NCBI GenBank assembly: GCA_964620905.1
Contig: CAZUKA010000001.1
Coordinates: 369,107-433,106 of the forward strand
From: an uncultured Gammaproteobacteria bacterium
GTDB lineage: Bacteria > Patescibacteriota > Patescibacteriia > S139-126
DNA length: 64,000 bases
Direction: 5' to 3'
The notes under the pieces were generated by a model. The model was not told where the DNA came from, made no database searches, and saw only the letters and a list, made by a program, of their open reading frames with translations. Below are positions 2,377 to 33,602 of this stretch, one piece after another. A program made the position numbers and the translations under genes. Numbering within the stretch: position 1 is the first letter of the stretch; every line of letters begins with the position of its first letter.

Positions 2377-5330
2377 ATTTTTTCTCCAGATATTTCAAAT
2401 TCTTGACCTGCCAAATCATGTGGACGAGCAAAAACCACTTCTTTGGCTAAAACACTAGTTTTGATCATTTCTAAAAACGATTCAAATTTTTGTTGCAAAT
2501 TTTCCGAGATAACTAAATATAAAATTATCTGATCACTGATGGTGAGTCCTGATTGTTTGCGTGAATTATTGACGCTCCGAATCAGTTCGCGTACCAAACC
2601 AGCTAGAGCCAACTGTTCATCAATTTCTGTATTCAATCTAATTTCACTTGCACCCAATCTTACTTCGTTGACATTTATTTCTTGACGCAAAATATCAAGA
2701 TACTGAACCGGTAAATCTTTTTGCGTGATAAAAATCTCTGCCAACGGTTGTCTAACTTTTATTTTAGCCTGTGCCCGTAAAGCTAGGGCTTGGGTGACAA
2801 TCAATCTCACTTGCTGCATCAAATGCAAATTATTTATTTCCTCTGGCATTAATTCCCTGCTTTGTGGCCAAACTGACAGATGAACCGAAAGCGCAAAATC
2901 TTCTTGTTTACTTGGACAACTATCAATCAACTCCTGATACAACTTTTCTGCCATAAACGGAGCAAAAGGTGCGAGTAATTTAGACAGTTCCAATAACACA
3001 AATCCTAAAGTTTTCACTGCCTGTGCTTGAGATTCGCCGCCGGCTTTAAAACGATCGCGACTACGTCTCACATACCAAGTTGATAAATCATCAATGAACA
3101 ACGACAAACGTCTAGCTGCAGCAGTTATATCATATTCATCCAAAAATTTGCTAACTAACTGAACTGTTTCAATAAGATAAGACATTATCCATTGATCCAA
3201 TAGATCAGCTGACGGCTGTTGGGGTACAGTTTTTACTGCTGGCACATAAAGTTGATAAAAAGAAAATACATTCCATAAAATCAGCCAATTCTTTTTTAAA
3301 ACCTCATCCACATTTTTGGCATCAAAATTCTTTGGTTCACCCGGCTGGTTGATGGTATAAAAATGCCAACGCAAGGCATCAGCGCCAAATTTATTCATAA
3401 TTTCCCACGGATCAACAATATTGCCTTTACTTTTGGACATTTTTTTACCGTATTTATCGTTGATATGCCCCAAACAAATCACATTTTGATAAGGGCTTCC
3501 CTGATCAAGCAAAGTGGCAACTGCCAGTAAGGTATAAAACCAACCGCGCGTTTGATCAATAGCTTCACAAATAAAATCGGCCGGAAACCATTTTTTTTCA
3601 GCAATTAATTCTTTATTTTGAAAAGGATAATGAATTTGGGCAAAGGGCATTGCTCCAGAATCAAACCAACAATCAAGTACAGCTGTATCTCGCGCCATCT
3701 CGCCGCCACACTGTTCACACTTGATTTTAATTTCATCAACCAAAGGCCGGTGGGCGTCAATTAATTTTTGTCCGCTTAATTTTTCTAACTCCGCAAACGA
3801 ACCAATCACTTTGATATTTCTGCAACCTTCATGATTCTTGCCAATTTGGCATTGCCAAATTGGCAATGGTGTTCCCCAATACCGCTCTCGAGAAATTGCC
3901 CAGTCTTTCACCCCATCCAACCATTCACCGAAACGACCAGTTTTAATATGGTTAGGCACCCAATTTATGTTTTGATTGTTGCTTTTCAATTGCTCTCGCA
4001 AAGCTGACATCTTAATAAACCAGGAATCCTTAGCATAATAAAGTAGCGGTGTATCACAACGCCAACAAAAAGGATAATCGTGTTTATATGATTCTTGTTT
4101 AAACAATAATTTTTGCTCTTGTAAATAATTAATAATGACTTTTTCCGTTTCCTCATCTTTGACAAATTTATTTTGTAAAGACTCAAGAATCTGGAATCTG
4201 GAATTTGGAATCTGGAAGAAAAAATTTCCATTTTCATTTACCGTATGATGTTTTGGCAAACGCACTTGTTCACCTAAATTGTAATCATCCTCACCATACA
4301 TCACCGCGGTATGAACTACTCCCGTGCCATCATCGGTAGTTACAAAATCAGCAACATAAACTTTATATGCGTTTTGATAATTTTCTACTACATCAGGAAT
4401 CGCACCAGGAAATAATGATTCATACTCTACTCCAACTAATTCACTACCTTTAAACTCAATTAAAACTTCGTATTCAACCTGATCCAATATACCTAACCTG
4501 GCTTTGGCAATTATTAGATCCTCCTTAATTTTCAATTCGTCATTCTTAATTCTAACTTTGACATAATCAAAATCGCTCCCCACTGCCAAAGCCACATTCC
4601 CAGGCAGCGTCCAAGGCGTTGTGGTCCATGAAAGAATATATAGCGGAACATCACTATTAGCTGACCCCTTAATTCTTAATTCGTTATTCTTAATTCTAAA
4701 CTTAATATAAACTGATTCATCTTTCACCTCCCGATAGCCTTGGGCGACTTCGTGACTAGAAAGTGCAGTACCACAGCGCGGACAATGGGGCACAACTTTA
4801 TGCCCCTGATAAAGCAATCCTTTATCATAAACTTGTCTAATAATCCACCACAGTGTTTCTATATAATCATTTTCATAGGTCACATAAGGATTGTCCATAT
4901 CTAACCAAAAACCCATCCGCCACGTAAGTTTTTCCCATTCTTCTTTATACTGCCAAACTGATTGCCTACATTTACTATTGAAATATTTAATTGAATCAGC
5001 AACATTGTCCCGTAAAGATTCAATCTGAGGTTTACCGGAAATTCCCAGTTCTTTTTCCACCTGCAACTCTACTGGCAGACCGTGAGTATCCCAACCAGCT
5101 TTTCTAGTTACGTGATAACCTTGCATGGTTTTATAACGCGGGATTAAATCCTTGAAAGCCCTAGCCAGTACATGATGAATACCTGGTTTGCCATTGGCCG
5201 TTGGCGGGCCTTCATAAAACACAAACTCACCCTGGGGTGAATCTTTCTCCAGGGACTTTTTGAATATATTTTCTTTTTCCCAAAATTCTAAAACTTCTTT
5301 TTCTAATTCAGGAAAATTTATTTGAGTCAT
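2352..5330 (-). CDS. ileS: Isoleucyl-tRNA synthetase (992 aa, with extra low-complexity insertions).
   Basis: Class I aaRS motifs are present: P-T-A-N-G-K-P-G-I-H-H (HIGH region) and KMSKSKGN. The sequence is collinear with IleRS. Confidence 0.93.
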   Translation of the reverse strand: MTQINFPELEKEVLEFWEKENIFKKSLEKDSPQGEFVFYEGPPTANGKPGIHHVLARAFKDLIPRYKTMQGYHVTRKAGWDTHGLPVELQVEKELGISGKPQIESLRDNVADSIKYFNSKCRQSVWQYKEEWEKLTWRMGFWLDMDNPYVTYENDYIETLWWIIRQVYDKGLLYQGHKVVPHCPRCGTALSSHEVAQGYREVKDESVYIKFRIKNNELRIKGSANSDVPLYILSWTTTPWTLPGNVALAVGSDFDYVKVRIKNDELKIKEDLIIAKARLGILDQVEYEVLIEFKGSELVGVEYESLFPGAIPDVVENYQNAYKVYVADFVTTDDGTGVVHTAVMYGEDDYNLGEQVRLPKHHTVNENGNFFFQIPNSRFQILESLQNKFVKDEETEKVIINYLQEQKLLFKQESYKHDYPFCWRCDTPLLYYAKDSWFIKMSALREQLKSNNQNINWVPNHIKTGRFGEWLDGVKDWAISRERYWGTPLPIWQCQIGKNHEGCRNIKVIGSFAELEKLSGQKLIDAHRPLVDEIKIKCEQCGGEMARDTAVLDCWFDSGAMPFAQIHYPFQNKELIAEKKWFPADFICEAIDQTRGWFYTLLAVATLLDQGSPYQNVICLGHINDKYGKKMSKSKGNIVDPWEIMNKFGADALRWHFYTINQPGEPKNFDAKNVDEVLKKNWLILWNVFSFYQLYVPAVKTVPQQPSADLLDQWIMSYLIETVQLVSKFLDEYDITAAARRLSLFIDDLSTWYVRRSRDRFKAGGESQAQAVKTLGFVLLELSKLLAPFAPFMAEKLYQELIDSCPSKQEDFALSVHLSVWPQSRELMPEEINNLHLMQQVRLIVTQALALRAQAKIKVRQPLAEIFITQKDLPVQYLDILRQEINVNEVRLGASEIRLNTEIDEQLALAGLVRELIRSVNNSRKQSGLTISDQIILYLVISENLQQKFESFLEMIKTSVLAKEVVFARPHDLAGQEFEISGEKIWLSIKKS
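4184..4218. repeat. Heptanucleotide tandem repeat (GAATCTG x ~4.5), in frame inside ileS, encoding the FQIPNSRFQIL insert.
   Basis: caagaatctggaatctggaatttggaatctggaag is read directly from the sequence. The same 7-nt phased GAAT motif occurs at 10371-10416 and 33094-33132. Confidence 0.8.
4514..4712. repeat. Two copies (~4528-4557 and ~4676-4712) of a GAAT-phased 7-mer repeat, in frame in ileS. They encode RIKNDELKIKED and RIKNNELRIKGS.
   Basis: Coding-sense units GAATTAA GAATGAC GAATTGA AAATTAA and GAATTAA GAATAAC GAATTAA GAATTAA are seen in the sequence. Confidence 0.7.
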
Positions 5331-8640: not shown

Positions 8641-8720
8641 AATAATTTTTAATTTTGTAATTTTTAAATAAATTCTAATTTTTAAACTAAAAATTATAAA
8701 ATTTAAAAATTAAAAATTCT
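8641..8720. repeat. AT-rich imperfect palindromic intergenic element, copy A. It lies directly upstream of ssrA.
   Basis: The left arm aatttttaattttgtaattttt and the right arm tttaaaaattaaaaatt are near reverse complements. Related copies are at 10838-10930 and 29445-29528. Confidence 0.6.
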
Positions 8721-8724
8721 ATCT

Positions 8725-9101
8725 GGGGATGCTATCTATTCGCTAAGAAAGTGGAAACGTATGTTCAAATCGAGCGGCAACTCGCAAAACTACCAAAATT
8801 ATAAGTGCCAATACACTTATGAGCAAAATTAGGAACGCTTTTGCGCTACCTAACTTTGCACCAGTTGTAGCCTAATTTAGTCTACGACCATCGCTGAAAT
8901 CTGGCTCCAAGATTTCATAAGCGGTGTCATATCTGGAGCTTGAACGTCGATAAGCTGACTGTCGCCGTTTGAAATATTGTTCAGCACCACCAAAAAGTTT
9001 TTGCCTGATTTTATCTTTTTGGTTTTCCAATCAGGCTAAGTTTGTAAATCGTGCGTTGAAACTTTTTTACCACGTGGGTGCAAAGCCCACCATCTCCACC
9101 A
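8725..9101 (+). ncRNA. ssrA: tmRNA (transfer-messenger RNA, SsrA).
   Basis: 5' GGGGAUG pairs with 3' CAUCUCC, followed by ACCA. The T-arm is GUGGG-UGCAAAG-CCCAC. An internal reading frame ends ...NFAPVVA-UAA at 8873-8875. It sits right after smpB. Confidence 0.85.
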
Positions 9102-10345: not shown

Positions 10346-10370
10346 TAAATTTACTTATATTCTTTATTCT

Positions 10371-10416
10371 AATTCAAGATTCTAGATTCTAGATTCTAAA
10401 TTCTAAATTCTAATTT
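10371..10416. repeat. Heptanucleotide tandem repeat (GATTCTA / AATTCTA units) between rpmI and rplT.
   Basis: aattcaagattctagattctagattctaaattctaaattctaattt. The reverse complement is GAATTTA/GAATCTA units with a 7-nt period. Confidence 0.8.
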
Positions 10417-10418
10417 AT

Positions 10419-28766: not shown

Positions 28767-28835
28767 CTTTGAAAATTATAAATTATAAATTTTTAACAAT
28801 TTTTTATAGTTTATAATTGAAAATTTAAAATTATT

Positions 28836-29444: not shown

Positions 29445-29528
29445 TAAATTAATTTTTAATTTTTAATTTTGTAATTTTATAAAATCAGTTTAGTTTAAAA
29501 ATTTAAAAATTAAAAATTAAAAATTTTA
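29445..29528. repeat. AT-rich palindromic intergenic element, copy C. It lies immediately upstream of dsbA.
   Basis: aatttttaatttttaattttgtaattttataaa ... tttaaaaatttaaaaattaaaaattaaaaatt. Confidence 0.6.
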
Positions 29529-32775: not shown

Positions 32776-33053
32776 GAAAATATTTTTGGTGTTTTTAACA
32801 GACCATCCTTTGTTTCCGGCAGTGCTGCTATTAGATCCGATTTGAAGAAAGAATTTTTTACTTCGTCTGGTCTTAGAGCTGATTTGGTATCGAGATAAAA
32901 ACCCGGTTGGATATTGCTGGTATCAACTTTTTGCAAAACCGAAACAAACTGCAAAATATCATCTATCTGCTGCTGGTAGGAATTTATTTCATCTGACGTC
33001 AACTCCAAACGTGAGAGTTTGGCCAAATGTTCAATTTGTTTTTTATCAATCAT
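32772..33053 (-). CDS. gatC: Glutamyl-tRNA(Gln) amidotransferase subunit C.
   Basis: IEHLAKLSRLELTSDEI... It is coupled to gatA by a 4-nt overlap. Confidence 0.85.
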   Translation of the reverse strand: MIDKKQIEHLAKLSRLELTSDEINSYQQQIDDILQFVSVLQKVDTSNIQPGFYLDTKSALRPDEVKNSFFKSDLIAALPETKDGLLKTPKIFS

Positions 33054-33093
33054 AATCTTATTTTATCAGATAACGGGAAAATGCCAATATTAT

Positions 33094-33132
33094 TGAATCT
33101 TGAATCTGGAATATAGAATCTGGAATTTGACA
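33094..33132. repeat. Heptanucleotide tandem repeat (GAATCTG/GAATCTT units).
   Basis: ttgaatcttgaatctggaatatagaatctggaatttgac. Confidence 0.8.
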
Positions 33133-33287: not shown

Positions 33288-33362
33288 GCAGAGATAGCTC
33301 AGTTGGTAGAGCCGTGGGTCAGAAAAACCCTAGGGTCGTGAGTTCAAATCTCACTCTCTGCT
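33288..33362 (+). tRNA. tRNA-like gene with a non-canonical anticodon arm (possibly tRNA-Phe GAA-like; 2 nt longer than standard; no CCA encoded).
   Basis: The acceptor (GCAGAGA/TCTCTGC), D-arm (GCTC-AGTTGGTA-GAGC) and T-arm (GTGAG-TTCAAAT-CTCAC) are canonical. The anticodon region CGTGGGTCAGAAAAACCCTA folds only with a 9-nt loop, or as a 4-bp stem with A33. Confidence 0.5.
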
Positions 33363-33370
33363 CAAAATAA

Positions 33371-33400
33371 TAAGCTGTCACCAAGACAGCTTTTTAATTT
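33371..33400 (+). terminator. Terminator hairpin after the tRNA-like gene.
   Basis: agctgtc-accaa-gacagct ttttaatttt. Confidence 0.55.
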
Positions 33401-33602
33401 TGAATTATAAATTTTAAAATATTCCGACCCTCTGCTGCCTGAAGTGAAAAATTGCCAAGAAGCGAGTGAAATATGCCTCTCAACTAGCGTTAAGCGATTT
33501 TAAGAGGCACACGAGCGGATTGGCAATTTTGCCTGAACGGCAGTATTGGTCGGCAGTTTTTGCTACTTTTTGCTGACAAAAAGTAGAGATAAAAATATTT
33601 TT

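Follow-up and report, generated by a model that had tools for sequence, protein, structure and literature searches.

Several kinds of heptameric repeats have been described in bacteria. An excess of heptameric simple sequence repeats (SSRs) is found in the cyanobacterial short tandemly repeated repetitive (STRR) sequences, in the GGGAATC repeats of Xanthomonas and in the GGGGAYT repeats of Nostoc (Rehm 2015, PMC4692102), and that paper (PMC4692102) cites a 2007 survey and the proposal that such SSRs arise by polymerase slippage. The TAACTGA direct repeats found in marine Beggiatoaceae, in cyanobacteria and in Bacteroidetes (MacGregor 2015, PMC4679880) occur in 2-6 tandem copies, mostly in intergenic DNA a few nucleotides (nt) from a start codon, including positions inside ribosomal-protein operons. 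In forward orientation they carry stops in three frames, and a minority lies within open reading frames (ORFs) in the stop-free reading; RNA structure was not predicted for them, nor was a mobility mechanism evident (PMC4679880). A heptamer that is translated is the poly-psi motif of NeuO, an (AAGACTC)n variable number tandem repeat (VNTR) of 2-93 perfect copies in the 5' part of the neuO coding sequence in E. coli K1 (PMC3046976). Two other systems place repeat DNA inside proteins: the Rickettsia palindromic elements, which are about 150 bp long, palindromic and similar to miniature inverted-repeat transposable elements, or MITEs, and encode a conserved peptide (reviewed in PMC10969869), and the amino-acid tandem repeats of Borgs, in which fast-evolving DNA repeats make new, often disordered protein segments with the ORFs left intact (PMC9879509). 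Precedents exist for heptamer SSRs, for their start-proximal placement and occasional overlap with ORFs (PMC4679880), and for the translation of a heptanucleotide VNTR in three phases (PMC3046976). The present analysis concerns short arrays of a GAAT-phased heptamer inside ileS, the gene for isoleucyl-tRNA synthetase (IleRS), in a 64-kb stretch of contig CAZUKA010000001.1 (the window; 36.6% GC) of which the host lineage is Patescibacteria, or candidate phyla radiation (CPR). The ileS gene is an essential housekeeping gene.

The arrays are probably heptanucleotide SSRs, consisting of GAAT and three further nucleotides, that are DNA repeats in origin and have been domesticated in frame within ileS. 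Under this explanation, they would have been born as DNA repeats and not as coding sequence, with GAATTAA or GAATCTA as the ground-state unit, and would turn over by replication slippage, with putative alleles of +/-21 nt or lethal ones of +/-7 nt, or by intra-array conversion. Occasionally, products of such SSRs would become fixed within a gene; where the gene is essential, survival would be limited to three-unit steps and stop-free phases. New sites may then be seeded by short-range template switching from an array that is already stop-free, and the clustering of arrays within genes would result from this local copying. The encoded residues would be tolerated as passengers in surface loops and would not be a selected motif.

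A sequence-only reading of the window had proposed three coding arrays (sites A, B and C) and two intergenic arrays (in the rpmI-rplT spacer and near gatC); all five exist, at the positions it gave or no more than a few bases off (Table 1). By Tandem Repeats Finder, the segment 4187-4217 at site C has period 7 with 4.4 copies of the unit GAATCTG (91% matches; site C read on the plus strand is GAATCTG x4.4). The segments 4524-4553 and 4668-4697, at sites B and A, both have period 7 with 4.3 copies, at 65% and 82% matches, respectively. The intergenic segments 10366-10412 and 33093-33130 contain 6.9 copies of ATTCTAG and 5.6 copies of TTGAATC. The strict 7-nt period that had been claimed therefore holds for 4187-4217, but in the other two ileS arrays only the GAAT phase is strict.

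The pattern GAATN3GAATN3GAAT, with at most one mismatch, has 15 matches in the window, every one within the five loci, whereas dinucleotide shuffles yield a mean of 0.91 and none of 100 reaches 15. When a single scoring scheme is applied to all periods, the window has 7 arrays at period 7 and 0-1 for each other period from 2 to 15, and the shuffles have about zero; the enrichment of period 7 is also found in relatives. The genome is only 36.6% GC, and the codons for Lys, Asn, Ile and Glu are AT-rich, such that a chance origin from codon usage, or an assembly artefact, may be considered. However, the shuffle controls, the restriction of the enrichment to period 7, and the recurrence of the arrays across independent NCBI, JGI and Logan assemblies make this a practically negligible possibility.

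The general property is the 7-nt period and not one sequence. In 873 kb of genomes that were chosen for a GAAT array, there are 169 arrays of period 7 versus at most 4 for each other period (4-12), and these arrays comprise 56 heptamer unit types, TAACTGA among them. A sequence-specific generator is weakened by this result, because loci selected for GAAT also carry the other unit types. AT-only period-7 arrays (AAATTAA, AAATTAT, TTAATTT, AAAATTA) also occur in intergenic DNA of the window at 8684-8718, 28773-28791, 29449-29470 and 29498-29525, one of them immediately 5' of the transfer-messenger RNA (tmRNA) gene (8725-9101), and relatives of the window carry AATTACT arrays. The AT-only units likewise indicate that the period, and not the GAAT unit, is the general feature. 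Within the GAAT arrays, the coding and intergenic members form one family, as had been suggested: the rplT-spacer array of the relative L001 combines TTAGAAT, CTAGAAT and TAAGAAT units. The heptamer SSRs of Rehm share with the arrays in the window the bias toward period 7 with other periods normal, and the occupation of the same gene intervals in relatives with varying length and sequence. In contrast, those SSRs are reported to be intergenic and G-rich with G-quadruplex potential, while the arrays here are AT-rich and also coding.

The 3-nt tails of the units point to an origin at the DNA level. In 19 coding arrays from this clade and other CPR genomes, out-of-frame tails are TAA, TAG or TGA in 42 of 50 units, whereas none of the 28 in-frame tails is a stop, the triplets there being CAA, CAG, GAC, AAA, AAT, GAA and similar ones. 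Therefore, the ground state appears to be a stop-bearing DNA repeat, in which editing has affected only the codon that would end translation. Because sense codons replace TAA or TAG only where these are in frame, the arrays in ileS appear to be translated. The same counts support the earlier suggestion of selection on the arrays inside a coding gene.

Compared with the TAACTGA repeats, the rplT-spacer array is similar in being start-proximal, with stops in all frames and no Shine-Dalgarno (SD) sequence, a likeness that holds for this intergenic member but not for the ileS arrays. TAACTGA arrays are, furthermore, present in genomes that carry GAAT arrays. The units here are, however, GAATNNN (GAATCTG, GAATTAA, ATTCTAR). 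The ORF cases in BOGUAY are at protein ends or in hypothetical proteins, whereas the present arrays are within conserved domains of essential enzymes, several per gene, and use the stop-bearing orientation with the in-frame stop edited out.

With a unit of 7 nt, the frame constrains the total length to steps of 21 nt, as had been anticipated, and a difference of exactly three units is seen at site D, a fourth site in ileS. At this site, the orthologs L001 and L002 have GAATAAA GAATTGA GAATTAA GAATCAA (encoding NKELRIKN), and the window is shorter by exactly 21 nt, or seven codons. The L004/L130 orthologs have a degenerate version, and more distant orthologs are shorter by 13 residues. Immediately 5' (in the coding sense) of the 21-nt gap in the window lies a 14-nt near-tandem repeat, TTGCCAAATTGGCA x1.9 (92% matches; 3838-3865, codons PIWQCQIG), which may be there by chance or may be related to the deletion. 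Between genomes, the same locus thus varies by three units at site D, from 3 to about 7 units in the rplT spacer, and in unit sequence at site C; copy-number variation among related genomes, which the sequence-only reading had marked as worth looking for, is seen at the first two.

The NeuO motif is similar in that a coding 7-nt unit keeps the frame only at multiples of three, three units making one heptad with R and K in a disordered or flexible segment. It differs in its N-terminal position in a non-essential prophage gene and in serving as an on/off switch and activity tuner, while the arrays here have about four imperfect units, are internal to an essential gene and are of fixed length across species. 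The Borg repeats differ in having genic units whose length is a multiple of three; with the 7-nt unit of the present arrays, the frame is restored per three units, and the unit is read in all phases. Since each 7-nt unit shifts the frame, as in the NeuO mechanism, the gain or loss of single units might toggle ileS as a phase-variable contingency switch, in the manner of neuO or the 7-bp repeats of the H. influenzae hmw promoter. This is highly improbable, considering that ileS is essential and the 64-kb window shows no second copy, that the arrays are short (4.3-4.4 units) and two are imperfect (65% and 82% matches), and that at sites A-C the arrays do not differ in length among three to five species.

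Homogenisation at the DNA level is indicated at site C. In the window, this site has four TTCCAGA units with one mismatch, and in L002, at the same position and of the same length, it has three TTCAAGC units and one TTCAAGA; in L001 and L004 it is degenerate. The unit identity within the array is 0.93 (window; L002), compared with 0.64-0.79 between orthologous units of different species. The A to C change in L002 at unit position 7 is found in three units and falls on codon positions 1, 2 and 3, with the replacements I to L, N to A, and R/K to S. Such a recurrence across codon phases is not producible by selection at the protein level, but can be produced by homogenisation of a DNA repeat.

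Two paralogous segments of 44 nt with 84% identity, 144 nt (48 codons) apart, contain sites A and B. Codons for Y-I/V-K-F/V upstream of site A exist even in array-free orthologs, and site A may have been copied from site B through this pre-existing microhomology. The view that each array reflects the independent arrival of a mobile element does not fit site A, which looks like a local copy of its neighbour.

The encoded peptides, RIKNNELRIK, RIKNDELKIK and FQIPNSRFQI at sites A, B and C, are as had been predicted, and their status as insertions is upheld by ortholog alignments, by gaps in the best solved homolog of the window IleRS (PDB 8c8w, E=2e-245) and by their placement in loops or at a hairpin tip of a predicted model. 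Opposite sites A, B and C, the gaps in 8c8w are 11, 6 and 8 residues. In an alignment of 22 IleRS sequences, the window has 6 more residues than array-free orthologs at site A and 8 more than distant orthologs at site C, and site B is within a length-variable stretch. The arrays had been said to add 10-12 residues each; they are indeed insertions, but the net gain is smaller (6 at site A and 8 at site C relative to orthologs).

In the AlphaFold (AF2) model, which has a mean predicted local distance difference test (pLDDT) score of 78 and a predicted template modelling (pTM) score of 0.70, each of the three sites is a local pLDDT dip. Site A is at the end of a strand (E200-213) and leads into a loop, with pLDDT below 50 at residues 220-226; site B is at the tip of a beta-hairpin (E255-263/E268-275), the block having a pLDDT of 63 versus 89 on either side; and site C is in the coil ahead of helix 380-385. 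Sites A and B flank the conserved WTTTPWTLPGN motif, a region which is presumably the CP1 editing domain of IleRS, and site D is a variable stretch between two conserved cysteines. The arrays are thus predicted to occupy variable loops, taken as surface loops, and it may be their location in loops that makes them tolerated.

An alternative is that the heptads ELRIKNx and FQIPNSK are selected protein features, for example as a source of positive charge for tRNA binding. Several of the hosts bind tRNA (IleRS, arginyl-tRNA synthetase (ArgRS), the CCA-adding enzyme and TrmD), the site B pattern R-I-x-N-x-E-L-x-I-K is kept down to 66% IleRS identity, and there is the precedent of NeuO, in which RLKTQDS heptads tune the enzyme (PMC3046976). 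At site C, however, the peptide varies freely (FQIPNSRFQI, FQIQNSKFKI, FKLQASSFKI, FKILNTKFKI) while the DNA repeat stays; the window has lost the entire heptad of site D, and L004/L130 have replaced site B by unrelated sequence. Moreover, a protein constraint needs neither a 7-nt periodicity nor the retention of out-of-frame TAA, and pLDDT is low at the inserts. A selected role for the heptads is considered quite unlikely on these grounds.

The history of the arrays in ileS may be followed through related genomes. Syntenic loci were obtained for eight orthologs from the independent assemblies mentioned above, and the timing of site acquisition was derived from nine orthologs. The window IleRS is 100% identical to P0001, a protein of a 716,806-bp contig, with the nearest relatives at 80-59% identity, and the first named matches are from Komeilibacteria or a 'Patescibacteria group' at about 57%; no second assembly of the species of the window was found (the P0001 cluster is a single contig). 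The contig CAZINS010000001.1 (L001/L027), with an 80%-identical IleRS and full synteny with the window, is labelled Gammaproteobacteria, but its genes are CPR-like and it is likely a mislabelled bin. Some IleRS homologs (P0013-P0015, P0019, P0030, P0061 and P0097, some of them Komeilibacteria) are 1145-1218 amino acids (aa) long with an extra PF00300 (histidine phosphatase) domain, an unusual architecture, with only about 52% of the query included in the best local alignment.

Site B appears to be the oldest, being present in L006 (66% IleRS identity) with traces at 62-63%. Sites C and D are common to the clade of the window and the L004/L130 clade, and site A, which is found only in the window, L001 and L002, appears to be the youngest. 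The order of acquisition, as read from these distributions, would be B, then C and D, then A. There appear to have been at least three or four gains of arrays in ileS, and losses too, always at orthologous positions. In the L004/L130 clade, site B has been overwritten by unrelated sequence together with a 20-residue insertion (VKNLINNGRAPITGKDNKLY), which marks this loop as a recurrent insertion hotspot. With arrays at orthologous positions in up to nine related genomes, the ileS arrays are orthologous and vertically inherited.

Arrays of this kind are not confined to ileS. A scan of a collection with one genome per species for GAATYWR x3 followed by GAAT returned at least 120 stretches, the genome of the window itself not being among them. 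The matches listed, to which the counts below refer, come from cyanobacteria, Bacteroidota, Acidobacteriota and Verrucomicrobiota as well as 16 named Patescibacteria, and the arrays in them are nearly perfect. The array is inside an ORF in 8 of the 16 CPR loci. According to Pfam, it is within a matched domain in seven of these eight ORFs (CCA-adding enzyme, MurG, family 2 (GT2) glycosyltransferase, XerC-type integrase, ArgRS, MurF and TrmD) and also in an S-adenosylmethionine (SAM) methyltransferase from an unclassified bin; the eighth CPR ORF, L065, has no Pfam match. Several genes carry more than one array, namely three in ArgRS (L104) and two each in MurF (L115, Parcubacteria) and MurG (L071), in both orientations, which echoes the clustering in ileS. 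For example, the ArgRS of the Patescibacteria locus L104 contains NKELRIKNQE, IIHNSQFIIH and GIKNHELRIMN. In all Pfam-placed arrays the encoded peptides are cyclic and of the same two types, ELRIKNx or, from the opposite orientation, FQIPNSK, because the unit is read in its three phases.

In contrast, at the 104 non-CPR loci among the matches listed, the inspected ORF overlaps are mostly with spurious high-GC ORFs or upstream of the real start, and only one looked internal. The in-gene excess in CPR, 8 of 16 versus between 1 and 5 of 104 as bounds, has a Fisher p of 1e-7 to 1e-5, which is approximate in that it rests on manual ORF inspection of the matches listed. It is conceivable, as a tentative extension, that a CPR-wide period-7 process routinely seeds (GAATTAA)n-type arrays in domains of housekeeping enzymes, with editing of the in-frame stop and local spread giving rise to recurrent ELRIKNx/FQIPNSK micro-insertions. 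Under such a CPR-wide process, the in-gene excess would stem from a distinct mechanism of insertion or else from selection that is unusually relaxed in these symbionts.

Several points weigh against a purely slippage-derived, domesticated SSR. Site A differs in net length by 18 nt and not by 21, and therefore at least that event was a replacement and not a pure gain of three units. Four acquisitions fell in ileS and none in the other approximately 60 genes of the window, a clustering above that of a uniform mutational process. The rplT-spacer array has been kept in five species, which suggests that some arrays of the family are functional. Finally, single-unit slippage cannot found a first in-frame array, as the intermediates are frameshifts.

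The last point would favour a dedicated copy-and-paste or mobile process that inserts pre-formed heptamer arrays, analogous to the Rickettsia palindromic elements, and so would the presence of the same units in unrelated genes of distant CPR (ArgRS, MurF, MurG, TrmD, the CCA-adding enzyme, the integrase and the GT2 glycosyltransferase) and the in-gene clusters, which number four sites in ileS, three in ArgRS and two each in MurF and MurG. The likeness to the Rickettsia elements extends to repeat DNA that is in frame, at fold-compatible sites, within metabolic or housekeeping genes unrelated to one another, in a host-dependent bacterium with a reduced genome; the difference is that 30-nt direct tandem repeats without inverted repeats are found here. 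No inverted repeat in 4100-4800 brackets an array, and a target-site duplication is not evident. The arrays are about 30 nt and not 100-150 nt long, extended similarity exists only between sites A and B, and no transposase or candidate enzyme was found linked to arrays. The diversity of 56 unit types in the GAAT-array genomes shows the period to be the common factor, and not a sequence recognised by an element. With the orthologous positions and vertical inheritance, these observations make a dedicated mobile process unlikely, and the 'shared mobile mini-element' of the sequence-only reading is not supported, flanking terminal inverted repeats being absent as well. The specific anatomy of a MITE or Rickettsia palindromic element was rejected for the lack of bracketing inverted repeats, the size of about 30 nt, and the lack of dispersed near-identical copies. 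Both a dedicated insertion mechanism and a selected protein role could coexist with the domestication of DNA-born SSRs in ileS.

Table 1. Coordinates of the arrays and associated features. Positions are those of the window unless a relative is named.
Feature	Position	Strand	Sequence or remark
ileS coding sequence (CDS), 992 aa	2352-5330	minus	ORF list and translation; homologs with Pfam tRNA-synt_1 / Anticodon_1
Site A array	4668-4697	minus	coding strand AGAATTA AGAATAA CGAATTA AGAATTA AG; RIKNNELRIK, aa 212-221
Site B array	4524-4553	minus	coding strand AGAATTA AGAATGA CGAATTG AAAATTA AG; RIKNDELKIK, aa 260-269
Site C array	4185-4220	minus	coding strand TTCCAGA TTCCAAA TTCCAGA TTCCAGA TTC; FQIPNSRFQI, aa 372-381
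Site D junction, codons N499|H500	3831-3836	minus	codon alignments; window retains one unit
44-nt segment with site B	4523-4566		repeat family D1; paralog of 4667-4710
44-nt segment with site A	4667-4710		repeat family D1; paralog of 4523-4566
rpmI-rplT spacer array	10366-10417	+	~7 units ATTCTAG/ATTCTAA; ends 5 nt before rplT ATG (10419)
rpmI-rplT spacer array position, window	10346-10418		
rpmI-rplT spacer array position, L001	5218-5256		
rpmI-rplT spacer array position, L002	5056-5094		
rpmI-rplT spacer array position, L004	5111-5153		
rpmI-rplT spacer array position, L006	5257-5305		
Intergenic array near gatC	33088-33132		+ strand reads GAATCTT GAATCTG GAATATA GAATCTG GAAT
tRNA-Phe	33288-33363	+	

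The two intergenic arrays lie close to putative expression signals. In the mRNA sense, the rplT-spacer array has TAA or TAG in each unit, with stop triplets in all three frames. In each of the five species that were compared, the rpmI-rplT spacer has an (ATYCTAA)n array of 3 to about 7 units, which ends 4-10 nt before the rplT ATG; L001, L002, L004 and L006 have 3-5 units. Such positional conservation suggests that the array functions in the translation of rplT or that the SSR locus is very persistent. No SD sequence precedes rplT. The array as an SD substitute was nevertheless rejected, because SD sequences are scarce throughout the window (GGAG, GAGG or AGGA within 30 nt upstream at only 6 of 50 genes), and the absence before rplT is thus unremarkable.

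The array at 33088-33132 is located between two divergent promoter-like -35 hexamers, that of gatC on the minus strand (33087-33082), of which it is 6 nt upstream, and a TTGACA on the plus strand at 33127. The gatC gene is apparently nearly leaderless, with a promoter-like -10 ending at 33060 and the ATG at 33053.

At the RNA level, the ileS arrays fold weakly by themselves (-0.1 to -3.6 kcal/mol). Within the mRNA, pairing between site C and sites A and B was considered and rejected; the duplexes have energies of -17.4 and -16.5 kcal/mol versus shuffle means of -10.7 and -11.7 kcal/mol (fractions 0.04 and 0.06), and the pairing energy is an expected by-product of inverted phased repeats, such that the structure is not convincing. 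At gathering thresholds, Rfam identifies only the tmRNA and three tRNAs in the whole window, none of them overlapping the arrays. Beyond the gatC array, a strong hairpin RNA candidate was observed on the minus strand at 33423-33553 (within 33375-33600), between the stop of an upstream ORF (33603) and a terminator-like hairpin (33392-33372). Its minimum free energy is -67.1 kcal/mol over 226 nt (z = -5.45 versus shuffles), and Rfam gives no match to it at E<=1 either; an unrecognised small RNA, for example a 6S-like one, is a possibility.

In the literature, no description was found of stop-bearing heptamer arrays fixed in conserved domains of essential enzymes, several per gene, nor of stop editing specific to one phase, of 21-nt indels or concerted evolution in arrays of that kind, or of a recurrence among CPR lineages. 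For heptamer repeats in CPR, Patescibacteria, Parcubacteria and Saccharibacteria nothing relevant was found, the coverage being incomplete and novelty not proven.

Domestication of the arrays in ileS would mean that an essential enzyme has been remodelled by a non-triplet DNA repeat. It would leave a countable signature that may be searched for genome-wide, consisting of out-of-frame stops that are kept, in-frame stops that are edited, 21-nt indels and homogenisation across phases. For annotation, array segments would be unsuitable as functional motifs or phylogenetic characters. If the CPR-wide pattern holds, these genes would provide a natural system for the unexplained heptamer excess of bacteria, in which coding selection records the slippage steps, and the arrays would represent a previously undescribed origin of some of the small lineage-specific insertions in the housekeeping proteins of CPR.

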